A DNA stretch of 62,789 bases, filler included, from Stramenopiles sp. TOSAG23-6 (lineage: Eukaryota), in NCBI GenBank assembly GCA_900128565.1. It is 15 parts of 15 records of this genome, joined end to end, with 100 filler letters (N's around TTAATTAATTAA, not from the genome) between each part and the next. Parts side by side here need not be neighbours in the genome. Positions count along the whole stretch, not along the records: positions 1 to 4,113 come from LT637262.1; 14 more parts are not named here. One strand, given 5' to 3'. A program made the translations under genes and the position numbers. Each line of letters starts with the position of its first letter. The stretch's first letter is position 1. The notes under the pieces were generated by a model. That model made no database searches. It was not told where the DNA came from and worked only from the letters and a program-made list of their open reading frames with translations. Shown here in pieces: positions 1,623-58,617 of the stretch.

Positions 1623-1738
1623 GTTTGTTTTCAAAATTTAATATTTTTATATTTAATTATTTTTTTTTGGAAGAAAATTTTGTACCTAATGATTTTTTTA
1701 CACCAAAAAAAATATATATATATTTTTTCACAATACTT

Positions 1739-3507
1739 GGCTGGTGCAATTCAATGTTTGTCATTTTTATTAACTTCATTTTCTTCGGCTGTTGGTGTCG
1801 ATACAAATAATTCAACAAGTACAGCAAATGAATCCATTATTATGGATTCACAAATGAAGAAGAAACTAGAGTTACGATTGAAGTTGTATACAATGGTTTG
1901 TACATTTTCATAATGAATTTAAAAAAAAAAATTTTGGTAGAAAATTTTGTACCTAACGAATTTTTTTAAACGATTTTTTTTTTCACAATATATGCGACTG
2001 GGGCATATATCTTCCAGAGGATATGTCAAGGTTTACTGTAGCTCAGGCATCATTACAATTAATTAGTAAACATGTACGTTTTCATGATTCATTTTTACCA
2101 ATTTCGAATTTATTTTTTTTTACCAATTTCGAATTTATTTTTTTTTTATCAATTTCGAATTTATTTTTTTTTCTTTTCCGTATAAAGTTGNTTTTTTTTT
2201 TTTANAAANTTCNCCNCCNAACNAATTTTGAATGTAGCATATTGTCACAATATATGCACATCTCTTCCGAAATGAAATGAAATCTAAAAATGCCATTGAA
2301 AATATATTTCATAGATTGTTAAAATGTTGCCATCATTATAGTAAAAAAACTTCAGATATTGGCAAGTTAGCTTTGAGTGCAGTTTTACACGAAATCTCTC
2401 TCAATTTGATAAAAGAATCGAATTTGGTAGATTCAAAATATTTATTTACATTTTTTATGAAAACATTTGCATCATTTCTTGTAGCTGATTCAAATGGATT
2501 TGATAGAATGATTAAAGTTCATATTGGAGTCACTGGTTTTGATATTTTTGCAACAGCTGTTTCAAAATTTGCACCAGATCAGGTCCCGGGTATCGTTCAA
2601 CAATTATTTCATTGTTATGACAGAATAATTCTACAACATAAAAATAAAAAGAGTGATAATAACCCTAACCATAATACAAAAACGTACCAAAATTTCGTAT
2701 CAAATGATAAAGTAGATGAAAGTAGTACAAATAATGTCAAAGAAGCGAAGAGTAAACATAAATTTGATTTTATTAAAAATCGATGGAGTGTCGCATCACT
2801 AATATTAATGAAATGTGGATGTACGTTTTCAAAATTGAATTTTTTATCTATATTTTTTTTATGGGAAATTGTATACCTAACATTTTTTTTTTTACGAAAA
2901 AAAAAAAAAAAAAAAAAAAAAAATTCACAGTATATATTTATCAGCCATTTCGTCATACTTACAATTTCTATCACTGAAAGAATTAGGTAAGAATATGCAA
3001 CTTCGTATTGAACATATAATTCAAGAACTTATTCTAGATTTTCCGAGTATTCATGAAAAACAAAGAATTCACTTAATTCAAGCTTTATTATGTATGTTTT
3101 CAAAATTGAATGTCTAATTTGTTTTTTCATACGAAATTATATACCTAACAATTTTTACAAAACAAAATATTTTTTCATAAGACATGTATGTTTTCAAAAT
3201 TGAGTTTTTTGAATTTTTTTTTTTCGTACTACAATTTGTACCTAACAAAATAACAATATATATTTTTTCACAATACATCAATATTTGTGTCACTTTTGGA
3301 CAAAGGATGTGTTTGTTTTATTTTTTTTCAAATTCGATTTTTTTTTTTTGGTTTTTATAAAAATTTTGTACCTAACAAATTTTTTTAGATTTTTTTTCAA
3401 AAATATTTTTCCAAAATACATTTCGTGATAAAAGGACAGCTGCTATTGGGTTTTTTCAATTACTTACTTTGAAAAGTAAACACAATTTGGTGGACATTCA
3501 ACAAAAT
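1739..3507 (+). CDS. PRKDC: DNA-PKcs fragment, N-terminal HEAT region (exons 1739-1899, 1994-2073, 2256-2820, 2936-3091, 3279-3308, 3422-3507; partial)
   Basis: LAGAIQCLSFLLTSFS / DMSRFTVAQASLQLISKHA / IFHRLLKCCHH / ELILDFPSI / SIFVSLLDKG resembles recalled DNA-PKcs N-terminal motifs VLAGCLKGLSSLL / DLKRYAVPSAGLRLFALHA / LFEVLLKWCAH / MQIDSFPQY / KVFLALAAKG. Confidence 0.78.
1900..1993 (+). other. Intron, GT-AT
   Basis: GTT T|gtacat...cacaatatat|GC GAC TGG joins in frame to DMSRF. Confidence 0.85.
2821..2935 (+). other. Intron, GT-AT (a CAG 5 nt upstream of the end is not used)
   Basis: GGA T|gtacgt...cacagtatat|AT TTA TCA is open; splicing at the CAG leads to a TGA stop. Confidence 0.88.
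3092..3278 (+). other. Two abutting GT-AT intron units (3092-3185, 3186-3278) with no exon between them
   Basis: Each unit has its own gtatgttttcaaaattga donor, cctaac branch point and 3' box; removing both gives LL-S-IFVSLLDKG. Confidence 0.85.
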
Positions 3508-4113
3508 GTATGTTTTTTTCAAAAAAAAAAAAAATATTTCAATTTTTTTTTTCGTAGTAAATTTTGTACCTAACAAAAAAAAAATATATATATTTCTTNN
3601 NNNNNNNNNNNNNNNNNNNNNNNNNNNNNNNNNNNNNNNNNNNNNNNNNNNNNNNNNNNNNNNNNNNNNNNNNNNNNNNNNNNNNNNNNNNNNNNNNNNN
3701 NNNNNNNNNNNNNNNNNNNNNNNNNNNNNNNNNNNNNNNNNNNNNNNNNNNNTTTTTAAAAAAAAAAAAAAAAAAAAAAAATTTATATTTTTTATTGCTG
3801 TACATTTAAAAAAAACAATATTTCTAACCCTAACCCTAATCAGTTATGTAGAAGTAGTGGAATAATGAAATTATAGCCAAAACCTTTCATGATGCTTTGA
3901 TGTGCTTGTTGTACTTTCGACAATAGCTTTTTTTTATGAACTTTTACTGTTTTTTTCTCTAGTAAAAGTTGCTATTTTAAGTATTGTATAGGCTATATTT
4001 AAGTATCAAATATTGTAATAAAAAGGTTTTCATTCTAGAAAGATTTTTATTATTTTTTCATACGAAAATTTGTACCTAACAATTTTTTTTTTTTTTTTGT
4101 AGTATATTTCAAT

Positions 4114-4213: not shown

Positions 4214-6477
4214 TTTCATTATTTTCATTATTTTCATTATTTTCATTATTTTCATTATTTTCATTATTAGTTGTTAGACATGTTTCGTTCATCTCTGCAA
4301 CATCATTTGTTTCTTTTTGTTCAGTTTTATACATGTCAGATTTCGTGTTGTATATATCTTGTGTTTCATTATTATTATTATGATTATCCAAACTGCCAAT
4401 GACGTTACTACACTGTACATTCGATTTTGATTGAAATTGTTTAAAAAAATCTTCTTCCCCAGGATGGAGCCAACGTTCACTTTTACGAGCAATAACGCTA
4501 CATTTTGGATATTTTGGAGTATTTAACGGAGTATTTAACTCTGATGTAACAAACTTCGTTCCTTCATGACACGAAATCTTATTTCTTTTATCAAGTTTTT
4601 CTTGTGCCAAACGTCTTCTATCTTGTTCAGCTCTCCAATATACTACTAATGAAGGTACGTATTTAAAAGCTTGGCTACTATCCACTCCATCACCCACTGA
4701 TAATGTTGATTTTTGACTTATTTCTATATCACTATTCTTTGAATGTAAATTATTTGAATTTTCTATTGAAGTAGTTGGTGGTGTATCAAATTCTCTAGGT
4801 GAGGAAGATTTGGTACGAAATTTCGTACCAAATCCACCAAAACGTCGGAGTCTTCGATTTTGAATCTTTTCTGCAATAATGTCAAATTCTACAACACAAT
4901 TTGACGTTGGACAAAAATTGAATACATTCTCATTTGAAGCATTTGAAATATTTTCATGTTTTTTCAAATGATTTTGATTTGTTTGATTGGTTTGCTTAGG
5001 GTTAGGGTTACTTAAATCTACACCCTCATCTTCAGTGAGAGAAAAATCAAAGTCTTCAATATTTATGTATTTTGGAAAAATATTTCAAAAAAATCCAAAA
5101 AAAATTGTTAGGTACAAAATTTCGTACGAAAAAAAAAATCGATTTTTTTGTAAAAAAAAAAATAAAACATACATACCTCTAAGAATAGGATGAACTTCTG
5201 TTTTAGGGTTAGGGTTAGGATGAACTTCTGTTTTTGACTCTAGCGCAACACTTTGTGAAACATTTGTACCAATGTTTGTATCGTTTTGTATATTAGGGTT
5301 AGGGTTTTGCATTTTTTTTTGAACAGGTTTATGTTCAATGCAAGATAATTCATGTATTGTAGGAATATATACATATATTTTTTAGTTTTTTTGTTAGGTA
5401 CAAAATTTCGTATAAAAAAAAAATCTGTAAAAAATTCATTAGGGTTAGGGTTAGGAAAAACGTACGTGTGCTTCAACTTCTTTATACGTACCAATATACC
5501 CACAATTAAATTCACATTCATGTATTGCGAAGATAAATCTCTATATATGTATACATAAATTTGTTAGGTACAAAATTTTGCGAGGAAAAAAAAATAAGAT
5601 AAAATATTCAATTTTGAAAACGTACATATATCATCAAATGAGAATCACTCGCATCATGAGGGTTAGGGTTTGCATCATTTACCTTTTTGTTATCTAGATG
5701 TTTTTCATCAATATTTGCATTTATATTTTTTGATTCTTTTGTACTTTTTGTAGTACATGAAGTCTGTATTGACTCTGTTGACATTAAATGTAATTGGTTA
5801 GAGGAAGAAGAGGCCTCAGAAATATCAACTTGCTTCTCAATACCAGAAATAAAACTTTCCTGCCCAAGATTAATGTTATGATTACGAAAACAAATATCAC
5901 AGAGGTTTAAGTGGACATAACCCATTCCAGAAAGGCTATAATCAGCTAAAAACTGATGAATATATGGAACATGTGACTCAAATGGAAGAAACCTAAACGA
6001 TTTTCCATGCAATGAGACTCCTGTCGATGCACGTTTTGAAACCTTTTTCACATCGTCTGGGTTTCGTAGAGTGACGAGCAGAAACCAGCTAGGTTCATGA
6101 TAGCCATAGAAATTTATACGACGAACAAATTCAATATCAATGACTTCACGACCAAGTTGTTTAGTACGTCGGAGAGCAGAAATTATTTTATTACGCGAAA
6201 CTTCTTCACTATTACCAAATTCATCGAATAATTCCTGTGGACATTGCAAATAGAAATATGGTTTCACGCCATGTATGTGTACTACTGCTTTCTTTCCATC
6301 CGATGTTGCCCCATATACTCTTATTACAGGCGCAACCAATTCTTTTAATCTATACATTTTGGAAGAAACATCCTCAAGTAAAACCTCTTCACCTGTTTGT
6401 GTGTCCATCATATAGTGTTCAAGGTACAGCAGTTGTACAGTGTACAACGAAGACGCTTTCAATGATGTCTCACTCAT
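4214..6477 (-). CDS. REV3: DNA polymerase zeta catalytic subunit, N-terminal part (exons 6477-5626, 5519-5466, 5351-5173, 5064-4214; 3' truncated)
   Basis: PVIRVYGATSDGKKAVVHIHGVKPYFY, FYGYHE and FESHVPYIHQFLADYSLSGMG are REV3 N-terminal motifs; three GT-AT introns (5520-5625, 5352-5465, 5065-5172) restore the frame. Confidence 0.85.
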
Positions 6478-16675: not shown

Positions 16676-16910
16676 ATGTATTGTGAAAAAATATTTCAAA
16701 AAAAAATCGTTAGGTACAAAATTTCGTACGAANNNNNNNNNNNNNNNNNNNNNNNNNNNNNNNNNNNNNNNNNNNNTTAATTAATTAANNNNNNNNNNNN
16801 NNNNNNNNNNNNNNNNNNNNNNNNNNNNNNNNTTTTAATTTTTTTTTTCATACGAAATTTTGTACCTAACAAATTTTTTAAATTTTTTTTTAAATATTAA
16901 ACAACAATTT

Positions 16911-18482
16911 ATGAATGGGCAATGTTACAATGGCAAAGTTAAATCTTGAAACTTGTGTGACATTTGCACCTGATGATGAAAAGTGTACTAAAATGCTACG
17001 AGTAATGACAAAACTGGACAAAGAATGGAAAGCTGCGGTACTTTGAAATATTTTTTGAAATTTTTTTTGACATTTTTTTTTCGTACGAAATTTCATACCT
17101 AACAAAAAAAAAAAAAAAAAAAATTTGAAATATTTTTCTACAATTTTAGAAAGCTGCAGAAAGTTCAAATAATTGGAAACTTGCAATTTATCATTTGGAA
17201 ACATTTTTAAATATGCCAGGTTTAGGTACCGGGTTTCCAATTATTCATAAAACACGACATTCTATCAATGAAAAACAGGAAAAAAATCATTCAAGTCAAA
17301 AGACAAAAAATAACCCTAACCCTAACCCCAACCCTATTATCCCTAAAATGCCAAAACATATTCAAAAAATCGTAACTAGACGAATCTGTACGGCATATGG
17401 ACGTTGGAGCTACTTACCTGCTCTTGGTTCAGCTGCTCATAATTGTACGCGAGCATTACGCCATGCAACAAGTGCAATGTATGGCCATCAAGAAGACGCA
17501 CGAAATGTTGGTACGTTTTTTTTTTTTTTTTTTTTTCATACGAAATTTTGTACCTAACAAATTTTCAAATTTTTTTTTTAAATATTTTTCACATGATTGC
17601 TGTTGATGAACGCATTCCAGTAGCTGAACTCTTTCTTGCTCGTTCATGGACAAGATTAGCACGTCGTTTATGGTCCAAAACTAGACAGGATTTATCAAAT
17701 GCTAAAAAATTACTTGCATGGGCGAACGATGATTATGAAAATTTAATGTCCTCTTCGAATCAATGGCGAGTTAATGGTGGATATTCAAAATATTCTGAAA
17801 AAAATTCTGAAAAAAATTTTGAAAAAAATTCTGAAAAAAATTTTGAAAAAAATTCTGAAAAAAATTTTGAAGAAAATTATGATGATTCACAACAGAAACA
17901 AAATGAACTTCGTACTTTATCAAATCTTTTAGATTTCCGATTACAATTTTTAGAAAAAGAGACAGATCGTCTTGAAGAGGAAGCAGAACAAGAAGAAGAT
18001 ATGTGTGTTTTATTTTTTTTTTTTTACAAAAAAATCGAATTTTTTTTTTCGTACGAAATTTTGTACCAAACAATTTTTTTTAGATTTTTTTTGGATTTCA
18101 ATTTTTTTTTTGTATAGAATAGTATGTACCTAACAAATTATTTGTTTTTGAATTTTTTTTTACAAAATTGGCATCGTTAATTGCACAATCTGAATTTAAT
18201 GATGTGTCCAAGAAAACGGTAGAAACTTTAGTCAATGCAGAAGAACAAGTAAACTTATTTAAACATCGAATACAGCGTACGTTTTCATTATGAATTTTTT
18301 ACCTAAATATTTAATTTTTTTTTTTTTTTTTATAAAAATTTTGTACCTAACAAATTTTTTTAGAATTTAATTATTTTTACAATACATGTCTGATTTTATT
18401 GAGCAATAAATACGAAGTTACAAAACGTAAATCATCTAAAACAATGCTTGAATATATACGACACAATAAAAACAATTTGTAG
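16911..18482 (+). CDS. TPR protein, DNAJC3/P58IPK-like, C-terminal part
   Basis: AKLNLETCVTFAPDDEKC.KMLR TPR-like motif; introns 17038-17149 (GT-AG), 17511-17599 (GT-TG), ~18003-18170 (ends uncertain) and 18277-18387 (GT-AT). Confidence 0.55.
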
Positions 18483-18639
18483 TAAATCATCTAAAAAAAA
18501 AAAAAAATTGCGTCGGTTTATATTTTATTTATTTTGTTGAACTTTTAAAATAATAAAACACAAAGTTTTTTCAAAATTTCAAAATTGAATATTCTATTTT
18601 TTTTTCATACGAAATTTCGTACCTAAGGATTTTTTTTTC

Positions 18640-20904
18640 TTATGAAACATTTCGAACACGTTTACAAAATTCCATATGAGCTGGCCAACCCAATTTATGA
18701 CATTGACCTTTACAAAATCTGACCTTTTTACATGCATGTATTGGGGAAAAATATATATTTTTTTTTTTTTAAATTTTTTGTTAGGTACAAAATTTCGTAC
18801 GAAAAAAAAATAGTTAAAAAATTGAAAAAAAGTAAAACATGCACAGCGTTTAATTGTAGATTTATGTCCCCAAATTTTACAATAATGACATTGAACTTCA
18901 CCTTTATGATTTCCATGTAATGTGAAAAAAATGTAAAAAAAAATTTACATTTTTGTTAGGTTCAAAATTTTTATAAAAAACCAAAAAAAAAAAAATTAAT
19001 TTTTTTTGAACATTTGAAATAATGAGAAACAAAAAATTAAATTTTTTTTGTTTTCTATGAAAATTTCGTATGAAACCAAAAAAAATATTTTTAATTTTTT
19101 TTGAACATTTGAAAATAATGAGAAACACATACATGATATGCTGCATATTCAGCTAAACGTTTTTGTTTCTCAGTTTCAATATCGCCCTTCTGACACGTGT
19201 CATCACTTTGACACGTGTCATGATCAATCATTTTGTTTTTTTTTATTTGTACTTGTATTGTATCATTTTGTTGTTGTTGTTGTTGTTGTTGTTGTACACC
19301 ATTAGGGTTAGGGTTTGAAGGCTCAATAATACAACGATTTGGTTCATTATGATCAATTCCAATCATTTGTTTTTGAGATTTTTTTTGAGATTCAGTAACC
19401 CTAACCCTAGTACTATGTTGTAAATATTTTTTACAATACTTTTGTATAATACTTGCAGCCCAATTTTTTTCAAACATTCCCAAATCTTTATCAAATGTTT
19501 TTTCTTCTCTATTTTCATTTTCAAATTCATAATTTTGTTCATTAGGGTTAGGGTTTGTCTTTTTTACTGTTTCATTCAAATTTAAAATTATATTTTTATT
19601 TATACAGACTGTTGTTTTTGTTGTCTTACCATCATTATTTATATGAAATGTTAATAATTCATTACAGTTTTGAAATTTTTCTAAGAAATTTTTAATGATC
19701 TAAAGTGTGAAAAAATATTTTTTTTTTTTTTTTTTTTTGGTTAGTACAAAAAAATTTTTTTTTTTTTTTAATTTACAATTTTTGAAACATACATTATTTT
19801 TATGAATTTTTTGTGTAAGCCACTCAACAGATTTCTTCATCATTTCAGGAACTACAAGTGAACCTACAAAACAAGGATACAAATTATTGTCTTGATTTGC
19901 AATGATAATTTTTGGTGTATTTTTTGTTATATACAGCATTGCATTATAATCAATTTTTACTTCTTGAAAAGTTTCCATCAAAAAAACACGAAAAACATCA
20001 TTTTTTAAAATTTGACCTTCTTCACCACGAAATATTTCTTTTGTAAATAATTTGAATGGCATTCCTTTTTTCTCATCATATATTGTAGAATTTCTATACA
20101 TTGATGATATGTCCAAAATTTTTTTTGTAATTTTGTTTTGTAATTCAATTATTGACTTGTCCAGCATTTCTTTTGCAATTTTGTCATTCTCATTCTCAAG
20201 CCAAAAATATTCCGCAGAACATTCTGTACCTAATGGAAACAAATTAAGTATTGACTTTTGAAGAATATCATGTTTGAACTCTTCCCAAGGTAGCCAAGGT
20301 AGGTTTAGGGTTTGTTTGAGATTTTCATTTTGATAATTTTGATTATGTTGATAATTTTGATTTTGTTCATTAGGGTTAGGGTTTATGCCGGGTGGTGGAT
20401 ATGATAAAGGGTTAGGGTTTATTTGTACACTTGATTCAATATCCAACATTGGCATCATCTCCTGAGTGTCCTGAGTATCCTGAGTTATAGTAGAAATATT
20501 ATCAGGTACTACTAACCCTAACCCTAATGAATCATCATTACACCCTAACCCTAATGAGTCATCATCAATTGTAGCACCTGTAGCCGACGAAGTGACATCT
20601 CCTACAACAATTTGTGGTCTTTGTGGTATTTGTGGTATGGATATTGGTGAATTCACTGCTGCTTCATTCGGTGTACCATGTAGTATACTACTAGGGTTAG
20701 GGTTACTAGTAGATTGTATTTCTTTTTGTACATCTAGGGTTGGGGTTTGTCTCATTTGTTTTTGGTCATTATCAGACAAATCTGCTTTTCCTTGAGTATT
20801 TCGAATTACATAATTTTGTTTTATAATCTCAGAAGCTGCCGTTTTTGAAATATTTTCATACTTTCCTGAAAAAAATTCAACTCGTAACAAATCTATACGA
20901 TATT
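18640..20904 (-). CDS. IQ-motif and MYND zinc-finger protein, C-terminal part
   Basis: Splicing yields CHYCKIWGHKSTIKRCACKKVRFCKGQCHKLGWPAHMEFC (MYND) and AASIIQKYCKKYL (IQ-like); introns 19700-19792, 18915-19132 and 18736-18842; stop TAA at 18640. Confidence 0.8.
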
Positions 20905-21114
20905 CATATTTTGTGAAAAAATATTTTTTTTTTNNNNNNNNNNNNNNNNNNNNNNNNNNNNNNNNNNNNNNNNNNNNTTAATTAATTAANNNNNNNNNNN
21001 NNNNNNNNNNNNNNNNNNNNNNNNNNNNNNNNNCAATTTTTTTTTTCAAAGTTTTTTTCATAGTAAATGTTGTACCTAACAATTTTTTGAATTTTTTTTT
21101 TTTCAACAATATAG

Positions 21115-27338: not shown

Positions 27339-29249
27339 ATGTCGTCTGACTTTGTCTGGCATTCTGGGTATTTGACAAAACATACTGTGGGTAGCACGTG
27401 GCATTGGGGGCGTTGGACTACTCGTTTTTTTTGTTTATATAACAACCTATTAACGTATCAGAAGAATGAGAATTCAGCAGCTGGAATAAAGAGTGTTATG
27501 ATTACCTCTGATACTATTTTGAGTTTATCTCACACAGGAAAATTAGCTTTCCACTTAAAAACTCCTCAATTGTCACTTCATGCTCAAGCAAGTAGTAAAG
27601 AGGAATTATTAGTATGGATGAAACAACTTGAAGCTGCAATTAGAGCTACTCGAATGCTTTCTGGTCACTCTTGCTCTGGTTTCCTCACAAAGTTAGCTAT
27701 AAAAAGTAAACGTAATTGGAAAAAGCGTTTCTTCTCTCTCAATAACAATTTGCTCAGTTATTATATTGTAGACAATGATAGTTCAGTAATGGTAAAAAAT
27801 AAAGGTACTCAATCAGTTGCAACATCAAAAGGATCAAAAACTGGAAAAGTAAAACAACAAACAAAGAGAACAAATAATGAAGGTACTCAATCAGTTGCAA
27901 CATCAAAAGCTGGTATAGTAAAACGTAGACCAAAGCGCATAATTCAACTTGATCATAATAGCAGTGTTCGTGAGGTAGGCTGTGTCAATGGTAGAAATTA
28001 TTGTTTTGAATTATACGTTTTTTTTTCAATTTTTCATCTAATTTTTTTTCGTACGAAATTTCGTACCTAACAAAAAAAATCAAAAAAAAAAATATTTCTT
28101 CACAATATATATCTACCCCAACGGCAGTATTAGTAGCACAGGCATCTAGTGAAGCATCGTTGAAAGTATGGTTAAGATCACTTCTCACTGCTATCGGCTT
28201 AGTAAAATTGAACCCTAGTATCAATGAAAAATTTGTTGAAAATGTTGCTGATGTAAAATTGAACCCTAGTATCAATGAAAAATTTGTTGAAAATCTTACT
28301 GATGTAAAATTGAACCCTAGTATCAATGAAAAATTTGTTGAAAATGTTACTGATGTAAAACAAGATATTAAATTGAAACAGACTGTTTTTTCATTAGGTA
28401 CGAAATTTGATACAAAACGATTAGGTACGGAATTTGATACAAAACTATGGGATTACTTATTGACTAATGCAACCACCATAGGGACTTTAATAGATAGTGG
28501 AATTGATTCTAGATATCGATTTGATATGTACGTGTTCAGCATGAATTTCAAAATATATTTTCATACGAAATTTTGTACCTAACAAAAAAAATATTTTTTT
28601 TTTAGCATAAATATCAAATTTATTTTTTTTTCATAAAAAAAATTCGTACCTAACCAACCAATCTCGAATTTTTGAAATATATTTTCACTATACATGTGGG
28701 TTAAATTGTGTGGTGCTTGTGCTTGGGCGTGGCGTAGGCCTAGAAGTGCCTTTGAAAGCGAAAATGAAGACGTCATTGAGGTATGTTTTATTGTTTTTTT
28801 CAATGTCAAATTTATTTTTTTTTCGTACGAAATTTTGTACCTAACAAAAATTTTTAGATTTTTTTTGAAATATTTTTTCACAATATAGGCAAAAGAAGCT
28901 GAAAATGCAATTTTATCTAGATCGATGGCTCAAAGATCTCAATCGTCTAGTAATACTACAATGATGTCAACATCTGATAAGAAAGATTCAAAGTTTGTCA
29001 ATGGCTTTCGAAAAATGATTAAAAAAGTTCATTCAAAACCGAATCAAAATTCGAATGTGGAAATGGTACGAAAATATTTACTAAAGAGGCGAATTTTATT
29101 AGAAAAAAATAGAAAATCAAAAAAAAGACGGAAAATTTGTGAGAGTCCTTGGGAACATTTTGGACGTCTAGCTCAGGCATCTAGTAAAAATGCACCTTTT
29201 GAGTCGACTATAATGAGAGATTTGGATCGAACGTTTCCAACAAATCCTT
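27339..29249 (+). CDS. Tandem PH and TBC (Rab-GAP) protein, 5' part
   Basis: Two PH domains (SGYLTK...W.TRFFCL; SGFLTK...WKKRFFSL), plus GIDSRYRFDMWVKLCGA and IMRDLDRTFPTNP (TBC); introns 28013-28110, 28528-28695 and 28781-28888. Confidence 0.88.
28202..28361 (+). repeat. 54-nt coding tandem repeat, 3 copies (VKLNPSINEKFVENxxD)
   Basis: Directly visible. Confidence 0.9.
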
Positions 29250-41999: not shown

Positions 42000-44900
42000 A
42001 TTATNATTATCATCTANATGTATATTCATATCATCATTATCATCTATATGTATAGTAGTCCGACTTCCACGATTTTTACGTCGGTCAATAATCGCTCTAG
42101 CTCGATTCCGTTGAAGTTTCTGTTGCTCATTTTGTAATTGCATTTTCCACTCACTTGATGATGTACTTTTATTTTTAGTAGAATCAGTGTGACTCTTAGA
42201 TGTATAATTATCATTTGAAGTATCTCTATTTATTTCTTTTGGTTTTTCTTCTTTTTCTGATAGAAAATTTGTTTCTTTTTTTTCTTCTTTTTCTGATAGA
42301 AAATTTGTTTCTTCTTTTTCTTCTTTTTCTGATAGAAAATTTGTTTCTTCTTTTTCTTCTGGTAGAAAATTTGTTTGGTATTTTGATTGGGTAAGTTCTT
42401 CACCATTCATACTATTACCTGCTGATGTCAATTTCCATAAAGATCTTTTAGTGATTGATGTTTCATGTTGTTTCCCATCACAGTTCGATTCATGTTTTAT
42501 ATTGGTTGCATTACATGGTACAATATTTTTACCATCTTTTACATTATTATTATAAACGTAATCCATACTATTGCTTTCAGTATTAAATGCAATATTTTCA
42601 TTAACACTTTCATCGCAATCCGACTTCTCACTATTTGATGTCTGTGATTGAGATAACGTGAATGAACTGTATTGTGCAAAAATATTTGAAAAACAATTCG
42701 TTAGGTACAAAATTTTTTTACGAAAAAAAACCAAAAAAAAAAAAAAATTCGAAATTGAAATTGAAATGAAAACGTTCAATAATTGCCCCATCACTTCGTC
42801 TTTTACATGATTTGCCACACGACTTTTGAACAATTCTTCCTCTTTCAATTTCGCAGCAGCTGCCGTTCGAGCGGCTTTTTCTAATATTATTTTGGATATT
42901 TCATTTTCCAAGTTTTGTTTTGTCACTTGTAAAGATTCAATCGTAACCGTCACTTCTTTTAATTTTTTACGAAGTTGACGCAAAGTAGGCTTTTTAATAT
43001 CATTACACTTTTCTACATTTCGTGATTTATCCTTACTTTTTTTTGTCGTTTTTCGCTTTCCTTTTAGATTTTTTATATTCACAGTTTTTTGATTCATTTT
43101 TGGATTTGTTTTCTTAATATTTCGCCATTTGTCTTTTATATTTGTTGAACTTCGTAAACATAAAATTTCGGAAAACTCTTTATCATTTTTCATCTCCGTC
43201 CAATTTCCAATTCCATGTTTTTCCACTGCTTTATGTAATGCGTCCACCTCAGAAGCAGTCCATCTTTTTCTTTTAGATTTCGTGTTTTTTGTATGATCTG
43301 GTAGTACTACACTATTGGATTCAATGGATTCAATGGATTGTATACCTCCTCCACATGACTCTATATTATTTGGGGATATCCCATTTGTTGTTGTATATAT
43401 ACCTGAGTTATTGGCTTTCTTTATCAAGTCTATTAATACACCTGTCGAGACGTTATTCACTTTAGCACATTTTTTTAAATGTGAATTTTTTTTAGTCGAT
43501 GTAAAAGTTGAAAAGTCAATGTTGCATAAAACACATTTTTGATTTCTTTGGAAATGTGTTCCAACAACCGAAATGTTTATACTATTACTATTAGTATCAA
43601 TATTATTATCAATACTTATACTATTATTATTATCAATACTTATACTATTAGTATCAATATTATTATCAATACTTATACTATTATAATCATTTTCAATATG
43701 TTTATTCGCATTAGTGGATTGTTTTTGATTTTCTAGACAATATTGGATACATTTTAAAGTTTTTGTTTCGTTTCTATTTATTTTTGTAATTCTTGAACTA
43801 CAGTTTTTATCTAAACACACATTTACATGCCGTTGTCTCTCCTCAATTGAATAATTATCAAGATTTTCATCACAGGCAGGACAACAGAAGTTAGGGTTAG
43901 GGTTCGTTGACTCTTTATTTTTGGGTACAACTACATTTTTAAGTACAGATTTCATTACTTCTTGTTTTGGAGATGAAGATTTCGACGTTTTTGCAACTTT
44001 TGTTTTCTGTTGAATACAAAAGGAAAAATCTTCAAGGACTATTGGGCCTATTTGTTGTCGATTTTTTTGATTTTCAATATTTATTTTATTTGATATTTTT
44101 ACTTTTTCTTCATTTTCATTATTTTTTTGATTTTTTTCAATTTCAATCGTGTTTGGTAAAGAACTATTTGATTTCGCTTTTTTCACTTGACTTGTTTCAA
44201 TAAAATCTGACAAATCTAATTCATTTATTTCTGGAGACATGTTTTGAAGTATACCAGTAGATAATGATCGCTTTGGAGTATTTGCAATTTGAGCGCATTT
44301 CCGTTTAGTCGTTTTTTTATCAGAGATTTCAGAGTTTTGATGTATACTATTATTATCAGAATTGACCATAAAATAATGCAAAAGAGCTGAAGTGTCACCC
44401 ATATTGATATGTGTCATACACATTTCTCGATTCTGCGCACGTTTAATTTGAAGAGTAACGCCTACATTTGGATTGAGTTGAAGTTCATTCAATCGTGTTC
44501 CATTTGTACTTGAAAGATCTGTTATTCCTACTGTGAGAATTTCCTCGTTGTTTTCTATCAATGAAGATTGTTTTTTTTTATGTCCATACACTTGAATCTT
44601 GCAGTGACAATCAGATACAGAAGTATCCTTTCGTAGAGTTATACCACATTTACGTGACCGACCTATAATTATTGTAGTGCAGTCATCATCACAGACTTCA
44701 TTTGTACTTTTTTCACTACTTTCGGTCCCTTCAGTTTCGAGTAAAATATCTAAACTATTCGATTCACGTAGATCTTGACTATCCGCATTATCGTCAATAC
44801 CATTATTCTCCTTTTGTTGCGATAACCGTATTCTAGCTTTTGTTTTTTTTGACTGCAAACGCCCTCCGAGTCTCGACCTCTTCTTTTTGGGATCTCGCTG

Positions 44901-45047
44901 TCTCTTCCTTCGTAATTTTTCCTTCACTACAACTGGTGCTGTCAATTCAACGTTTCCCGCTTCTGATGTCCATAGTGGAAAATGCTCTCCAGCATGCGGA
45001 CCAGATATTACAATGAGTTGTAGCTCATGCTTTGCAGATGTCATCAA
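42000..45047 (-). CDS. SLX4-like protein with FHA, two UBZ4-type zinc fingers and a TRF-type Myb (telobox) domain; intron 42667-42777; 3' truncated
   Basis: IGRS...VSDCHCKI...DLSSTNGT (FHA); CPACDENL...RQRHVNVCLD and CVLC...KNSHLKKCA (UBZ4 pair); KRKRWTASEVDAL...IKDKWRN (telobox). Confidence 0.75.
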
Positions 45048-45264
45048 TGATTTGAACTATTTACGTGGGAGCCATTATTGTTCTTTTAAATCTCTCTCCT
45101 TCTTCTCTTGAGATCAGCGACTCAAAAAAAAGTACTCAAAAAGTCGTTTCAAACCCTATAATCGTGAAATTGATTAGAAAATATATCATCATGTAACTTT
45201 CATTCATTTTTTTTTTATTACTTATTACTTTTTTTTATGATAAAATTATTGTAAACAGCCTCTA

Positions 45265-46023
45265 TTATATCTTCCTTAACAAATAAACACCTGCAAGCAA
45301 CCCGCCTAATTCAACACGCCATTGATTCTCAATCTGTATAAGTGAATTAGAGTTTGATACAACTTTTGTAGGGTTAGGGTTAGGGTTAACATTATCCGTA
45401 CAATTTGTACATTTTTGTATATTTTTTGTATTTGATTTGACTGCAGAGTCCCGAATCATTCTCAAATTTTGCCACAAAGTTCTTGTATCATTCGGAAATG
45501 CAGTAATCCAATCCTCAGCAGTTGTTTCCCCTTCAAGCAATTCCACTGGAACATTTCCTAAATATTTGTCAATAAAGTTTTGAATGGTTGCCAAAAGTTT
45601 GAGACGTTTTATTTTTACTTTGTTGTTACTTTTATTAGCGTTTTTATTACTTTTATTATCCTCATCATGTATACTATTCTTTATTTTTACTTTGTTGTTA
45701 CTTTTATTAGCGTTTTTATTACTTTTACTATCCTCATCATGTATATTATTCTTTATTTTTACCTTTTTAATACATTGATGATCCTTCTCATGTATTTCAT
45801 TCTTTATATTATCATTTATTTTTGTCATTTTGAGAATTTGAGTTTTTCTTTTTCTATCATTACCCTCAAAAATTTTCTTTCTTTTTTGTAACAATTTTCT
45901 ATAGCAAATACTATTCAAATATTTCTCATGGTCTGCTGAGTCAACTATAATTTTTGAATATTCAGTATTTATATTTTTTATCCATTTCTGAAAATTCTTT
46001 GTCAATGACGTCAGAATTACAGC
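45265..46023 (-). CDS. Unknown K/N-rich protein, last exon
   Basis: Open frame after intron end ...aaaatacag at 46024. Confidence 0.6.
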   Translation of the reverse strand, partial: AVILTSLTKNFQKWIKNINTEYSKIIVDSADHEKYLNSICYRKLLQKRKKIFEGNDRKRKTQILKMTKINDNIKNEIHEKDHQCIKKVKIKNNIHDEDSKSNKNANKSNNKVKIKNSIHDEDNKSNKNANKSNNKVKIKRLKLLATIQNFIDKYLGNVPVELLEGETTAEDWITAFPNDTRTLWQNLRMIRDSAVKSNTKNIQKCTNCTDNVNPNPNPTKVVSNSNSLIQIENQWRVELGGLLAGVYLLRKI

Positions 46024-46183
46024 CTGTATTTTGGAAAAATATTTCAAAAAAAAATCTAAAAAAATTTGTTAGGTACAAAATTTNNNNNNNNNNNNNNNNN
46101 NNNNNNNNNNNNNNNNNNNNNNNNNNNTTAATTAATTAANNNNNNNNNNNNNNNNNNNNNNNNNNNNNNNNNNNNNNNNNNNN

Positions 46184-49100
46184 ATTATNATTATCATCTA
46201 NATGTATATTCATATCATCATTATCATCTATATGTATAGTAGTCCGACTTCCACGATTTTTACGTCGGTCAATAATCGCTCTAGCTCGATTCCGTTGAAG
46301 TTTCTGTTGCTCATTTTGTAATTGCATTTTCCACTCACTTGATGATGTACTTTTATTTTTAGTAGAATCAGTGTGACTCTTAGATGTATAATTATCATTT
46401 GAAGTATCTCTATTTATTTCTTTTGGTTTTTCTTCTTTTTCTGATAGAAAATTTGTTTCTTTTTTTTCTTCTTTTTCTGATAGAAAATTTGTTTCTTCTT
46501 TTTCTTCTTTTTCTGATAGAAAATTTGTTTCTTCTTTTTCTTCTGGTAGAAAATTTGTTTGGTATTTTGATTGGGTAAGTTCTTCACCATTCATACTATT
46601 ACCTGCTGATGTCAATTTCCATAAAGATCTTTTAGTGATTGATGTTTCATGTTGTTTCCCATCACAGTTCGATTCATGTTTTATATTGGTTGCATTACAT
46701 GGTACAATATTTTTACCATCTTTTACATTATTATTATAAACGTAATCCATACTATTGCTTTCAGTATTAAATGCAATATTTTCATTAACACTTTCATCGC
46801 AATCCGACTTCTCACTATTTGATGTCTGTGATTGAGATAACGTGAATGAACTGTATTGTGCAAAAATATTTGAAAAACAATTCGTTAGGTACAAAATTTT
46901 TTTACGAAAAAAAACCAAAAAAAAAAAAAAATTCGAAATTGAAATTGAAATGAAAACGTTCAATAATTGCCCCATCACTTCGTCTTTTACATGATTTGCC
47001 ACACGACTTTTGAACAATTCTTCCTCTTTCAATTTCGCAGCAGCTGCCGTTCGAGCGGCTTTTTCTAATATTATTTTGGATATTTCATTTTCCAAGTTTT
47101 GTTTTGTCACTTGTAAAGATTCAATCGTAACCGTCACTTCTTTTAATTTTTTACGAAGTTGACGCAAAGTAGGCTTTTTAATATCATTACACTTTTCTAC
47201 ATTTCGTGATTTATCCTTACTTTTTTTTGTCGTTTTTCGCTTTCCTTTTAGATTTTTTATATTCACAGTTTTTTGATTCATTTTTGGATTTGTTTTCTTA
47301 ATATTTCGCCATTTGTCTTTTATATTTGTTGAACTTCGTAAACATAAAATTTCGGAAAACTCTTTATCATTTTTCATCTCCGTCCAATTTCCAATTCCAT
47401 GTTTTTCCACTGCTTTATGTAATGCGTCCACCTCAGAAGCAGTCCATCTTTTTCTTTTAGATTTCGTGTTTTTTGTATGATCTGGTAGTACTACACTATT
47501 GGATTCAATGGATTCAATGGATTGTATACCTCCTCCACATGACTCTATATTATTTGGGGATATCCCATTTGTTGTTGTATATATACCTGAGTTATTGGCT
47601 TTCTTTATCAAGTCTATTAATACACCTGTCGAGACGTTATTCACTTTAGCACATTTTTTTAAATGTGAATTTTTTTTAGTCGATGTAAAAGTTGAAAAGT
47701 CAATGTTGCATAAAACACATTTTTGATTTCTTTGGAAATGTGTTCCAACAACCGAAATGTTTATACTATTACTATTAGTATCAATATTATTATCAATACT
47801 TATACTATTATTATTATCAATACTTATACTATTAGTATCAATATTATTATCAATACTTATACTATTATAATCATTTTCAATATGTTTATTCGCATTAGTG
47901 GATTGTTTTTGATTTTCTAGACAATATTGGATACATTTTAAAGTTTTTGTTTCGTTTCTATTTATTTTTGTAATTCTTGAACTACAGTTTTTATCTAAAC
48001 ACACATTTACATGCCGTTGTCTCTCCTCAATTGAATAATTATCAAGATTTTCATCACAGGCAGGACAACAGAAGTTAGGGTTAGGGTTCGTTGACTCTTT
48101 ATTTTTGGGTACAACTACATTTTTAAGTACAGATTTCATTACTTCTTGTTTTGGAGATGAAGATTTCGACGTTTTTGCAACTTTTGTTTTCTGTTGAATA
48201 CAAAAGGAAAAATCTTCAAGGACTATTGGGCCTATTTGTTGTCGATTTTTTTGATTTTCAATATTTATTTTATTTGATATTTTTACTTTTTCTTCATTTT
48301 CATTATTTTTTTGATTTTTTTCAATTTCAATCGTGTTTGGTAAAGAACTATTTGATTTCGCTTTTTTCACTTGACTTGTTTCAATAAAATCTGACAAATC
48401 TAATTCATTTATTTCTGGAGACATGTTTTGAAGTATACCAGTAGATAATGATCGCTTTGGAGTATTTGCAATTTGAGCGCATTTCCGTTTAGTCGTTTTT
48501 TTATCAGAGATTTCAGAGTTTTGATGTATACTATTATTATCAGAATTGACCATAAAATAATGCAAAAGAGCTGAAGTGTCACCCATATTGATATGTGTCA
48601 TACACATTTCTCGATTCTGCGCACGTTTAATTTGAAGAGTAACGCCTACATTTGGATTGAGTTGAAGTTCATTCAATCGTGTTCCATTTGTACTTGAAAG
48701 ATCTGTTATTCCTACTGTGAGAATTTCCTCGTTGTTTTCTATCAATGAAGATTGTTTTTTTTTATGTCCATACACTTGAATCTTGCAGTGACAATCAGAT
48801 ACAGAAGTATCCTTTCGTAGAGTTATACCACATTTACGTGACCGACCTATAATTATTGTAGTGCAGTCATCATCACAGACTTCATTTGTACTTTTTTCAC
48901 TACTTTCGGTCCCTTCAGTTTCGAGTAAAATATCTAAACTATTCGATTCACGTAGATCTTGACTATCCGCATTATCGTCAATACCATTATTCTCCTTTTG
49001 TTGCGATAACCGTATTCTAGCTTTTGTTTTTTTTGACTGCAAACGCCCTCCGAGTCTCGACCTCTTCTTTTTGGGATCTCGCTGTCTCTTCCTTCGTAAT

Positions 49101-50263
49101 TTTTCCTTCACTACAACTGGTGCTGTCAATTCAACGTTTCCCGCTTCTGATGTCCATAGTGGAAAATGCTCTCCAGCATGCGGACCAGATATTACAATGA
49201 GTTGTAGCTCATGCTTTGCAGATGTCATCAATGATTTGAACTATTTACGTGGGAGCCATTATTGTTCTTTTAAATCTCTCTCCTTCTTCTCTTGAGATCA
49301 GCGACTCAAAAAAAAGTACTCAAAAAGTCGTTTCAAACCCTATAATCGTGAAATTGATTAGAAAATATATCATCATGTAACTTTCATTCATTTTTTTTTT
49401 ATTACTTATTACTTTTTTTTATGATAAAATTATTGTAAACAGCCTCTATTATATCTTCCTTAACAAATAAACACCTGCAAGCAACCCGCCTAATTCAACA
49501 CGCCATTGATTCTCAATCTGTATAAGTGAATTAGAGTTTGATACAACTTTTGTAGGGTTAGGGTTAGGGTTAACATTATCCGTACAATTTGTACATTTTT
49601 GTATATTTTTTGTATTTGATTTGACTGCAGAGTCCCGAATCATTCTCAAATTTTGCCACAAAGTTCTTGTATCATTCGGAAATGCAGTAATCCAATCCTC
49701 AGCAGTTGTTTCCCCTTCAAGCAATTCCACTGGAACATTTCCTAAATATTTGTCAATAAAGTTTTGAATGGTTGCCAAAAGTTTGAGACGTTTTATTTTT
49801 ACTTTGTTGTTACTTTTATTAGCGTTTTTATTACTTTTATTATCCTCATCATGTATACTATTCTTTATTTTTACTTTGTTGTTACTTTTATTAGCGTTTT
49901 TATTACTTTTACTATCCTCATCATGTATATTATTCTTTATTTTTACCTTTTTAATACATTGATGATCCTTCTCATGTATTTCATTCTTTATATTATCATT
50001 TATTTTTGTCATTTTGAGAATTTGAGTTTTTCTTTTTCTATCATTACCCTCAAAAATTTTCTTTCTTTTTTGTAACAATTTTCTATAGCAAATACTATTC
50101 AAATATTTCTCATGGTCTGCTGAGTCAACTATAATTTTTGAATATTCAGTATTTATATTTTTTATCCATTTCTGAAAATTCTTTGTCAATGACGTCAGAA
50201 TTACAGCCTGTATTTTGGAAAAATATTTCAAAAAAAAATCTAAAAAAATTTGTTAGGTACAAA
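46184..50263. repeat. Redundant contig: copy of 42000-46079 (SLX4-like gene 46184-49231; ORF 49449-50207)
   Basis: Identical ORF translations, and the same internal n positions. Confidence 0.95.
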
Positions 50264-50418: not shown

Positions 50419-50884
50419 CTATGATAGTGGACACAAAACTTGGCTTCGAAAGCATAGTAGCTTTGCTGATATTAATGAATTTAACAATCTTGCAGATGCT
50501 CTTGAAAGTTTTCTCACAACAAAGGCTTTCAAAGGCTTGGTAGAACTAGGGTTAGGGGATGTATGTTTTTATATTTGATTTTTTTTTAGTAGTAAATTTT
50601 GTACCTAACGAATTTTTAATCAAAAAAAAAAATTCTCTATATATGTTTTTGATTTTTTTTTAGTAGTAAATTTTGTACCTAACGAACTTTTAATAATTTT
50701 TTGTTTTTTCACAATATATGTTTTTGGAAGTTCTGGTGAAGAAACCGATGCTAGTCGAGAAGGTCTGTCTGATCTTGTGGATTTGGCTGTAGCTGATGGT
50801 TGCCAAACAAATGCTGTGACTCTTTTGGAGAATGATTATCATGAGATAATGAATTTGGCATTTAGGTTAACAAAAAAAGCATAA
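50419..50884 (+). CDS. C-terminal exons, probably iron-containing alcohol dehydrogenase family
   Basis: KGLVELGLGD|VFG...LSDLVDLAVADGCQTNAVTL..DYHEIM joined by GT-AT intron 50561-50719. Confidence 0.55.
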
Positions 50885-54540: not shown

Positions 54541-57500
54541 TTTTAATTTTTTTTTTCATACGAAATTTTGTACCTAACAAATTTTTTAAATTTTTTTTTA
54601 AATATTAAACAACAATTTATGAATGGGCAATGTTACAATGGCAAAGTTAAATCTTGAAACTTGTGTGACATTTGCACCTGATGATGAAAAGTGTACTAAA
54701 ATGCTACGAGTAATGACAAAACTGGACAAAGAATGGAAAGCTGCGGTACTTTGAAATATTTTTTGAAATTTTTTTTGACATTTTTTTTTCGTACGAAATT
54801 TCATACCTAACAAAAAAAAAAAAAAAAAAAATTTGAAATATTTTTCTACAATTTTAGAAAGCTGCAGAAAGTTCAAATAATTGGAAACTTGCAATTTATC
54901 ATTTGGAAACATTTTTAAATATGCCAGGTTTAGGTACCGGGTTTCCAATTATTCATAAAACACGACATTCTATCAATGAAAAACAGGAAAAAAATCATTC
55001 AAGTCAAAAGACAAAAAATAACCCTAACCCTAACCCCAACCCTATTATCCCTAAAATGCCAAAACATATTCAAAAAATCGTAACTAGACGAATCTGTACG
55101 GCATATGGACGTTGGAGCTACTTACCTGCTCTTGGTTCAGCTGCTCATAATTGTACGCGAGCATTACGCCATGCAACAAGTGCAATGTATGGCCATCAAG
55201 AAGACGCACGAAATGTTGGTACGTTTTTTTTTTTTTTTTTTTTTCATACGAAATTTTGTACCTAACAAATTTTCAAATTTTTTTTTTAAATATTTTTCAC
55301 ATGATTGCTGTTGATGAACGCATTCCAGTAGCTGAACTCTTTCTTGCTCGTTCATGGACAAGATTAGCACGTCGTTTATGGTCCAAAACTAGACAGGATT
55401 TATCAAATGCTAAAAAATTACTTGCATGGGCGAACGATGATTATGAAAATTTAATGTCCTCTTCGAATCAATGGCGAGTTAATGGTGGATATTCAAAACA
55501 GTCTCAAGAAAATTCTGAAAAAAATTTTGAAAAAAATTTTGAAAAAAATTTTGAAGAAAATTATGATGATTCACAACAGAAACAAAATGAACTTCGTACT
55601 TTATCAAATCTTTTAGATTTCCGATTACAATTTTTAGAAAAAGAGACAGATCGTCTTGAAGAGGAAGCAGAACAAGAAGAAGATATGTGTGTTTTATTTT
55701 TTTTTTTTTACAAAAAAATCGAATTTTTTTTTTCGTACGAAATTTTGTACCAAACAATTTTTTTTAGATTTTTTTTGGATTTCAATTTTTTTTTTGTATA
55801 GAATAGTATGTACCTAACAAATTATTTGTTTTTGAATTTTTTTTTACAAAATTGGCATCGTTAATTGCACAATCTGAATTTAATGATGTGTCCAAGAAAA
55901 CGGTAGAAACTTTAGTCAATGCAGAAGAACAAGTAAACTTATTTAAACATCGAATACAGCGTACGTTTTCATTATGAATTTTTTACCTAAATATTTAATT
56001 TTTTTTTTTTTTTTTATAAAAATTTTGTACCTAACAAATTTTTTTAGAATTTAATTATTTTTACAATACATGTCTGATTTTATTGAGCAATAAATACGAA
56101 GTTACAAAACGTAAATCATCTAAAACAATGCTTGAATATATACGACACAATAAAAACAATTTGTAGTAAATCATCTAAAAAAAAAAAAAAATTGCGTCGG
56201 TTTATATTTTATTTATTTTGTTGAACTTTTAAAATAATAAAACACAAAGTTTTTTCAAAATTTCAAAATTGAATATTCTATTTTTTTTTCATACGAAATT
56301 TCGTACCTAAGGATTTTTTTTTCTTATGAAACATTTCGAACACGTTTACAAAATTCCATATGAGCTGGCCAACCCAATTTATGACATTGACCTTTACAAA
56401 ATCTGACCTTTTTACATGCATGTATTGGGGAAAAATATATATTTTTTTTTTTTTAAATTTTTTGTTAGGTACAAAATTTCGTACGAAAAAAAAATAGTTA
56501 AAAAATTGAAAAAAAGTAAAACATGCACAGCGTTTAATTGTAGATTTATGTCCCCAAATTTTACAATAATGACATTGAACTTCACCTTTATGATTTCCAT
56601 GTAATGTGAAAAAAATGTAAAAAAAAATTTACATTTTTGTTAGGTTCAAAATTTTTATAAAAAACCAAAAAAAAAAAAATTAATTTTTTTTGAACATTTG
56701 AAATAATGAGAAACAAAAAATTAAATTTTTTTTGTTTTCTATGAAAATTTCGTATGAAACCAAAAAAAATATTTTTAATTTTTTTTGAACATTTGAAAAT
56801 AATGAGAAACACATACATGATATGCTGCATATTCAGCTAAACGTTTTTGTTTCTCAGTTTCAATATCGCCCTTCTGACACGTGTCATCACTTTGACACGT
56901 GTCATGATCAATCATTTTGTTTTTTTTTATTTGTACTTGTATTGTATCATTTTGTTGTTGTTGTTGTTGTTGTTGTTGTACACCATTAGGGTTAGGGTTT
57001 GAAGGCTCAATAATACAACGATTTGGTTCATTATGATCAATTCCAATCATTTGTTTTTGAGATTTTTTTTGAGATTCAGTAACCCTAACCCTAGTACTAT
57101 GTTGTAAATATTTTTTACAATACTTTTGTATAATACTTGCAGCCCAATTTTTTTCAAACATTCCCAAATCTTTATCAAATGTTTTTTCTTCTCTATTTTC
57201 ATTTTCAAATTCATAATTTTGTTCATTAGGGTTAGGGTTTGTCTTTTTTACTGTTTCATTCAAATTTAAAATTATATTTTTATTTATACAGACTGTTGTT
57301 TTTGTTGTCTTACCATCATTATTTATATGAAATGTTAATAATTCATTACAGTTTTGAAATTTTTCTAAGAAATTTTTAATGATCTAAAGTGTGAAAAAAT
57401 ATTTTTTTTTTTTTTTTTTTTTGGTTAGTACAAAAAAATTTTTTTTTTTTTTTAATTTACAATTTTTGAAACATACATTATTTTTATGAATTTTTTGTGT

Positions 57501-58617
57501 AAGCCACTCAACAGATTTCTTCATCATTTCAGGAACTACAAGTGAACCTACAAAACAAGGATACAAATTATTGTCTTGATTTGCAATGATAATTTTTGGT
57601 GTATTTTTTGTTATATACAGCATTGCATTATAATCAATTTTTACTTCTTGAAAAGTTTCCATCAAAAAAACACGAAAAACATCATTTTTTAAAATTTGAC
57701 CTTCTTCACCACGAAATATTTCTTTTGTAAATAATTTGAATGGCATTCCTTTTTTCTCATCATATATTGTAGAATTTCTATACATTGATGATATGTCCAA
57801 AATTTTTTTTGTAATTTTGTTTTGTAATTCAATTATTGACTTGTCCAGCATTTCTTTTGCAATTTTGTCATTCTCATTCTCAAGCCAAAAATATTCCGCA
57901 GAACATTCTGTACCTAATGGAAACAAATTAAGTATTGACTTTTGAAGAATATCATGTTTGAACTCTTCCCAAGGTAGCCAAGGTAGGTTTAGGGTTTGTT
58001 TGAGATTTTCATTTTGATAATTTTGATTATGTTGATAATTTTGATTTTGTTCATTAGGGTTAGGGTTTATGCCGGGTGGTGGATATGATAAAGGGTTAGG
58101 GTTTATTTGTACACTTGATTCAATATCCAACATTGGCATCATCTCCTGAGTGTCCTGAGTATCCTGAGTTATAGTAGAAATATTATCAGGTACTACTAAC
58201 CCTAACCCTAATGAATCATCATTACACCCTAACCCTAATGAGTCATCATCAATTGTAGCACCTGTAGCCGACGAAGTGACATCTCCTACAACAATTTGTG
58301 GTCTTTGTGGTATTTGTGGTATGGATATTGGTGAATTCACTGCTGCTTCATTCGGTGTACCATGTAGTATACTACTAGGGTTAGGGTTACTAGTAGATTG
58401 TATTTCTTTTTGTACATCTAGGGTTGGGGTTTGTCTCATTTGTTTTTGGTCATTATCAGACAAATCTGCTTTTCCTTGAGTATTTCGAATTACATAATTT
58501 TGTTTTATAATCTCAGAAGCTGCCGTTTTTGAAATATTTTCATACTTTCCTGAAAAAAATTCAACTCGTAACAAATCTATACGATATTCATATTTTGTGA
58601 AAAAATATTTTTTTTTT
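54541..58617. repeat. Alternative haplotype or copy of contig 16833-20933 (TPR and MYND genes)
   Basis: Essentially identical except 24 nt shorter, and locally different, in the (S/F)EKN repeat near 55497-55555. Confidence 0.95.

Follow-up and report, generated by a model that had tools for sequence, protein, structure and literature searches.

In Drosophila, zero-nucleotide exons have been recognised as ratchet points, of which 196 with an AG/GT were identified (bioRxiv 10.1101/006163), and in Cryptococcus neoformans the 375-nt intron of BOT1 is removed as two pieces of 210 and 165 nt (bioRxiv 10.1101/224170). As far as the available portions of these two reports go, the ratchet points resemble the locus described here in that a 3' splice site abuts a 5' site and that removal of the upstream part recreates a 5' splice site; BOT1 presents this arrangement in a microbe with short introns. 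The ratchet points described in these portions are AG/GT and lie mostly within very long introns, whereas the two units analysed here, A and B, meet at AT/GT, total 187 nt, belong to a single repeat family, and are candidates for stepwise removal.

Introners are transposon-like intron families with direct repeats at their boundaries (PNAS 2022, PMC9860276), and those of Amoebophrya have non-canonical boundaries (PMC7789003). Like the family to which A and B belong, they comprise many similar short introns in unrelated genes. In the accessible parts of both papers, introners bear short direct repeats over the exon-intron boundary, and their termini form short inverted repeats. Introner elements of the DNA-transposon type are recognised by mobility, a target-site duplication and a transposase; the family described here is introner-like in its sequence. 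We found no description of two abutting introner copies with a zero-length exon in the portions available of this literature (PMC9860276, PMC7789003), and the main text of PMC9860276 contains neither 'tandem' nor 'nested'. A literature search of limited coverage returned no paper on abutting introner copies or on GT-AT introns in a stramenopile.

The stwintrons of Hypoxylaceae need two splicing reactions in succession for their excision, and copies of similar sequence have spread within a genome (PMC8469720, PMC12403724). They share with the pair a complex intervening sequence and the presence of similar copies within one genome. In a stwintron, as the consulted sections of these papers present it, an internal intron breaks a splice signal of the external one, whereas A and B lie side by side and neither breaks a signal of the other. 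A stwintron reading of the locus was considered and discarded, given that all six signals of A and B are uninterrupted. Introns can also be gained by tandem genomic duplication, which adds intronic sequence that has splice sites of its own (PMC4974935). In that model, according to the part of the paper available, exon sequence with a proto-splice site is duplicated, whereas the origin of A and B by such an event would need a whole existing intron to be copied flush. The pair thus differs from the systems compared in its AT/GT junction, in its composition from two members of a single intron family, and in its very short length.

Results

One family of short introns interrupts the genes of the window

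The window, by which we mean the whole stretch of 62,789 nt that was analysed from the assembly of the marine protist Stramenopiles sp. TOSAG23-6 (GCA_900128565.1), consists of small contigs joined by N runs and a TTAATTAATTAA linker, and is AT-rich (22-37% GC in 2-kb windows). Two stretches of 4.1 kb each are duplicated in it: 42000-46079 is identical to 46184-50263 (100% identity), and 16833-20933 closely resembles 54541-58617 (99.3%). These are redundant contigs or alleles in the pseudo-scaffold. A telomere-like 12-mer, AGGGTTAGGGTT, occurs in 31 exact copies (0 expected) in exons and introns and on both strands, for example at 3826, 4998, 5205, 5295, 5441, 5659, 19304, 20372, 22608, 33246 and 43893; some of these copies are counted twice through the redundant contigs. 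At 5205, the 12-mer lies between the two arms of a 19-nt direct repeat, and the majority of the other sites are without flanking repeats.

Short introns of one family interrupt the genes of the window; they have a 5' GTAYGT, a T-rich body, the branch box TGTACCTAACAA, a T-run and, usually, a 3' CAMAATAYAT. The branch box is nearly invariant: when up to two mismatches were allowed, 84 matches were found against 7.8 expected. A family HMM, trained on 52 branch-centred segments of the window, gave 87 matches distributed over both strands and across the entire window; the intron unit proper corresponds to positions 28 to 125 of this model. There are 36 distinct full-length units, with a mean pairwise identity of 0.70. 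Family units measure 88-127 nt, with a distance from the branch to the 3' end of 33-60 nt.

Among the 32 solitary, full-length units with a GT start, the 3' end is AT in 26 cases, TT in three, AG in two and GT in one. To relate these boundaries to the reading frame, we removed each HMM-delimited unit exactly; of the 20 uniquely decidable units, 16 gave a result that agreed with the frames of the exons, where chance would give one third. This test was tried on 30 units, 10 of which were ambiguous, and one of the four misfits is the chimeric unit 1623-1737. The row of the frame test for unit +3311 is unreliable, as its 75-nt upstream flank reaches into unit B, and the boundary of that unit was taken from homology. 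The flanks of 30 solitary units showed an A at position -2 in 21, a T at -1 in 25 and a G at +1 in 17 (background frequency of G, 15%). In 17 of 32 units, the last two nucleotides of the exon equal the last two of the intron; most of these cases are AT-AT and one is AG-AG, and a terminal AT also occurs beside differing exon ends. The sequence properties of the family suggest that it is introner-like.

Internal mini-repeats are common in the introns of the GT...AT family. In intron 2074-2255, a 25-26-nt motif is repeated in tandem 3.2 times at 2092-2172 (94-96% matches), and this intron also has a stretch of scattered N calls. A 5' subtype, GTAYGTTTTCAAAATTGA, has seven matches with up to two mismatches, four of which are clustered in the DNA-PKcs fragment described below, within 1623-3203 (sites 1623, 2821, 3092 and 3186); the remaining sites are 5625-, 12307- and 29251+, the final sign giving the strand. 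Local spread or gene conversion could explain this clustering. On the minus strand, the unit 16203-16116 ends in ..CTGCTT and is directly followed by GTATGT (16116-16100); this GTATGT could belong to an exon or be a further 5' site.

Two complete family introns abut at positions 3092-3278

Units A and B are full-length copies of this repeated GT...AT family, arranged head to tail, with B starting directly after A (Table 1). The family HMM covers A over model positions 25-126 (43.8 bits, nhmmer) and B over positions 21-130 (56.8 bits, nhmmer). Of the 90 ungapped columns in the alignment of the two units, 73 are identical and 17 differ, and there are seven further columns with gaps. The first 18 bases of both units are the same, and this sequence has no other exact occurrence in the window; with up to three mismatches it matched 10 times (0.85 expected), and the zero-mismatch matches are A and B alone. 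TRF, run at a score of at least 50, did not include the pair among its listed repeats. Being diverged and unlisted by TRF, the pair is not an exact stutter.

A search of the window for the junction pattern, that is, a family 3' end directly followed by a family 5' end, gave two matches with up to two mismatches, against 0.01 expected. The second match is an ordinary exon-intron boundary, and the junction between A and B is thus the sole abutting case in the window. A degenerate form of the pattern was also searched in metagenome contigs, where none of the 35 loci found matched the family HMM, all being chance matches in unrelated DNA. A comparison with stretches from other genomes of the same survey gave no look-alike.

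The stretch 3092-3278 is a real head-to-tail pair of complete family introns with no exon between the copies. The preliminary description of this DNA had reported complete units of 94 and 93 nt in direct contact, with GTATGT following A at an AT/GT junction, and had held a simple stutter to be unlikely given their divergence; the sequence and the HMM coverage confirmed the first two statements, and the third agrees with the column counts and the TRF result.

Table 1. Features of the DNA-PKcs fragment around the intron pair. Coordinates refer to the window.
Feature	Coordinates	Strand	Basis
DNA-PKcs homologue exon, N-terminal HEAT region	2256..2820	+	Pfam, phmmer
Neighbouring family intron, AT-ended, AG 5 nt upstream bypassed	2821..2935	+	Frame, ungapped P0001 alignment
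Exon preceding the pair, phase 1 at its ..AT end	2936..3091	+	Single open frame; P0001 up to residue 551
Unit A, complete family intron of 94 nt, from 5' GTATGT through branch box and T-run to ..GACAT at the 3' end	3092..3185	+	nhmmer, PWM
Branch-point box of A, with 1 mismatch against TGTACCTAACAA; branch adenosine 3148, 37 nt from the 3' end of A	3140..3151	+	
Zero-length exon junction AT/GTATGT, 3' end of A against 5' end of B	3184..3191	+	Sequence, homology
Unit B, complete family intron of 93 nt, consensus-perfect branch box and 3' end	3186..3278	+	nhmmer, PWM
Branch-point box of B, identical to TGTACCTAACAA; branch adenosine 3245, 33 nt from the 3' end of B	3237..3248	+	
30-nt exon downstream of the pair	3279..3308	+	IFVSLLDKG vs P0001 553-561
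Next family intron, GTGTTTG ... ACAT	3309..3421	+	nhmmer 3296-3426; 5' site 3309 demanded by flanking exon frames
Next exon, then family intron running into N gap at 3599	3422..3507	+	

The pair interrupts a DNA-PKcs gene, whose alignment leaves no residue between the units

The gene that carries the pair, which codes for a kinase of DNA repair, was identified from its exons. Exon 2256-2819 matched the Pfam model DNA-PKcs_N with 31.3 bits (cut-off 26.1), and exon 558-1622 matched DNAPKcs_CC1-2 with 27.4 bits (cut-off 26.1). When the 188-aa exon was compared by phmmer with 1.84 billion representatives, two proteins were recovered at E <=0.001, with identities of 39% and 32%. The better match, a protein of 4408 aa referred to here as P0001, aligned over residues 311-454 (E 1.2e-09). 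The same full search revealed no close relative or transcript-derived copy with which intron positions could be compared. P0001 is a true DNA-PKcs, as judged by its set of Pfam domains (N, CC1-2, CC3, CC5 and PI3_PI4_kinase). BLAST of the gene fragment against P0001 gave 108 and 127 bits. These domain matches, above their cut-offs, and the colinear similarity to P0001 substantiate the earlier assignment of the gene to DNA-PKcs.

The window holds a fragment of this gene, with its two parts in the wrong order: exons 128-1622 match residues 1308-1702 of P0001, and the downstream exons 1740-3308 match residues 230-561. The break in order falls inside a family intron, unit 1623-1737, and the frame there is shifted by 1 nt. 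At this place, the contig has either been misassembled through the repeats or undergone a genuine rearrangement.

The pair interrupts a codon in phase 1, within the N-terminal HEAT region. To define what lies between A and B in the message, the alternative products of intron removal were compared with P0001 by means of a script. When both units were taken out and nothing was kept between them (0-nt model), no gap appeared across the junction relative to residues 549-561: the end of exon 2936-3091 pairs with residues 549-551, the split codon with residue 552, and codons 3281-3307 of the 30-nt exon (IFVSLLDKG) lie opposite MFVGLLDKG at residues 553-561. Retention of A would introduce five stops, and that of B one. 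From the sequence comparison, both copies must be removed, and the predicted ligated product is colinear with other DNA-PKcs. The view that the frame needs exactly 0 nt between the units, already put forward in the preliminary description, is upheld by this ungapped homology and by the lower score of a 4-nt alternative, discussed below.

Both units carry their own splicing signals

To evaluate the signals of the pair, position weight matrices (PWMs) for the 5' end, the branch and the 3' end were trained on the solitary units. The 5' ends of A and B are both at the median, with 16 of the 32 solitary units scoring lower. The branch box and the 3' end of B outscored all 31 and all 32 solitary units, respectively. 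Unit A keeps the ACCTAAC core in a weak branch context (one of 31 solitary units scored lower), and its 3' end is below average, with 8 of 32 solitary units scoring lower (lower quartile). The ATACCTAAC variant of the branch present in A was also found in solitary introns, for instance at 2872 and 17094. In both units the distance from the branch to the end is inside the family range. Folding of the RNA corresponding to 3072-3298 gave -21.5 kcal/mol (z = +1.12), with 170 of 200 shuffled sequences as good or better, and showed no structure joining the ends.

Each unit has a full set of signals, namely a 5' site, a branch box and, at the normal spacing of 33-37 nt, a 3' end, and should be removable separately; three routes can be envisaged. 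If A were removed first, the exon ending in ..AT would be joined to the GTATGT of B, and splicing would take place again at a junction that is AT/GT instead of one with AG. If B were removed first, A would be left as an ordinary intron. Alternatively, the 5' site of A could be used with the branch and the 3' end of B, and all 187 nt would leave in one step. Since the three routes would give the same mRNA, the arrangement is expected to be nearly neutral for the gene. Partial products would remain substrates for splicing and, if exported, would carry stop codons.

As to the main route, we place about half of the weight on stepwise removal; the rest falls on one-step or mixed removal, which is plausible because composite introns of 159-168 nt with two branches and one clear 5' site are found in the same window. 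The weak branch context and the weak 3' end of A, and the ORFs restored when these composites are removed whole, favour removal in one step, and the completeness and normal family length of both units favour their recognition as two introns. Recursive (ratchet) splicing at AT/GT, one of the two readings offered in the preliminary description, is possible, given that all three signals of both units are within the range of the solitary units.

Composite introns elsewhere in the window

Four other composite introns contain two branch-box modules: 1-127, 18003-18168 (also present as 55687-55852), 28528-28695 and 50561-50719. The first is a partial tandem duplication with a period of 72 nt that is not flush with the unit ends. 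The last is likewise partial and not flush; it has a period of 74 nt, spans the 3' end and approximately 4 nt of exon, and shows a TTG microhomology. The modules of 28528-28695 are 65% alike. This composite and 18003/18005-18168, which occurs in both copies of the redundant contig, join dissimilar or truncated modules, namely a complete or 3'-truncated unit and a 5'-truncated unit.

Removal of the whole composite restored the ORF in the three testable cases (159-168 nt). When the first unit alone was removed from 28528-28695, two stops remained, and in 50561-50719 both whole and partial removal left an open frame. Introns close to the pair in length and with two branch modules thus seem to be tolerated. 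The composites may be decayed descendants of flush pairs.

Origin of the pair and alternative explanations

Taken as a whole, the best explanation of the locus, which we hold with moderate confidence, is that of a real pair that arose by insertion and whose units are separately removable. Its first element would fail if the exon between the units were not of zero length, either because A ends at the AG at 3180-3181 and is followed by a 4-nt micro-exon and the next intron from 3311, or because a short exon was deleted between two introns. Unit A does contain an AG 4 nt short of its end, the family alignment puts the start of the next unit at 3311, and the 4-nt model with this 5' site also has an open frame. 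However, the 4-nt model, which we rejected, loses the alignment past residue 551 of P0001 and reaches 95 bits against 108 for the 0-nt model (63 against 99 locally), whereas the 0-nt model runs ungapped over residues 552-561 with six of nine identities in the 30-nt exon. In addition, the neighbouring intron 2821-2935 also bypasses an AG, located 5 nt ahead of its AT end. A lost exon was rejected as well, because the ungapped run through residues 552-561 leaves no space for missing residues. An exon of any length between A and B is therefore extremely improbable. The pair would also disappear if the locus held one true intron and the second unit came from a repeat-driven misassembly or an amplification chimera. 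The window is indeed a pseudo-scaffold of small contigs, and the wrong-order join with its frame shift of one nucleotide, inside the family unit 1623-1737, belongs to the same contig. Nevertheless, a misjoin driven by repeats falls in common sequence and would produce one hybrid unit instead of two complete flush units, and 17 differing columns out of 90 aligned, plus seven gap columns, correspond neither to a stutter nor to an amplification copy. Moreover, the exons flanking the pair are consecutive in P0001, and the window contains no second copy of them. An artefact of the assembly is, on this evidence, very unlikely.

Regarding the origin of a real pair, we consider the chance to be slightly better than even that a second copy of the family inserted exactly at the AT/GT boundary of a resident copy. 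The resident boundary AT/GT would mimic the preferred flank AT/G, so that the new copy would land flush and generate the order AT-A-AT-B-AT; the flank consensus AT/G is what makes the AT/GT at the resident 5' end a good insertion site. This consensus could, on the other hand, reflect a splicing constraint rather than an insertion preference. Insertion is favoured because insertions are always flush with the unit ends and random duplications rarely are: the two partial tandem duplications of the window are not flush, and the pair of A and B is. The low similarity of the modules in 28528-28695 argues that these are independent neighbouring copies. The competing explanation, a whole-unit tandem duplication in place, by unequal exchange or by end joining at the flanking 2-nt AT microhomology, followed by divergence to about 81% identity, seems to us unlikely but deserving of serious attention. 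Each of the two units has the other as its best match (0.82, ranking 27th among 630 pairs), and they have in common the 18-base 5' end that is unique to them, but B is equally near (0.81-0.82) to three other units, and A and B were sisters in just 8% of the bootstrap trees of a maximum-likelihood tree of the 36 units, in which 21 of 33 inner branches had support below 80. At the 20 substitutions between A and B, the family majority was matched by A at nine and by B at seven (p = 0.8); this symmetry, in itself uninformative, is what is expected of copies of equal age, and it would also fit duplication. Tandem duplication is also active in these introns, as seen in the 72-nt period at 1-127, the 74-nt period at 50561-50719 and the 25-26-nt motif repeated 3.2 times at 2092-2172. 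Against it, both breakpoints would have had to fall exactly at the unit ends, within the 2-nt AT, and the other two duplications of near-unit period are not flush. Re-insertion of the element at an existing junction, as proposed in the preliminary description, is supported insofar as AT/GT fits the flank consensus, and the tree, the divergence and the similarity values do not separate it from whole-unit duplication.

A more far-reaching version of the insertion reading is that the family is a present or recent mobile element that homes to its own AT/GT boundary and builds tandem introns, which would be resolved by obligate re-splicing at a ratchet site devoid of AG. We regard this as a speculative and rather doubtful proposal.

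Discussion

Considered alone, the locus would be near neutral for the gene and represents one further case of an arrangement known from fungi and flies; it is tidy and has precedent, and it is not unprecedented. Its interest lies in its use as a compact, natural substrate for tests, in which two near-equivalent introns that do not end in AG share one common junction. Such a substrate bears on whether a 3' end can be defined by the terminus of the element itself, and on re-splicing at AT/GT.

If flush pairs turned out to be common and built from unrelated copies, they would be direct evidence of insertion at the boundary of the family itself. Under that same condition, the introns of this organism would grow by whole units that later fuse into longer composites. 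Should the homing reading be true, the junction between A and B would be the first recursive splice site set by the terminus of an element instead of by AG/GT, and it would offer a route for introns to lengthen unit by unit.
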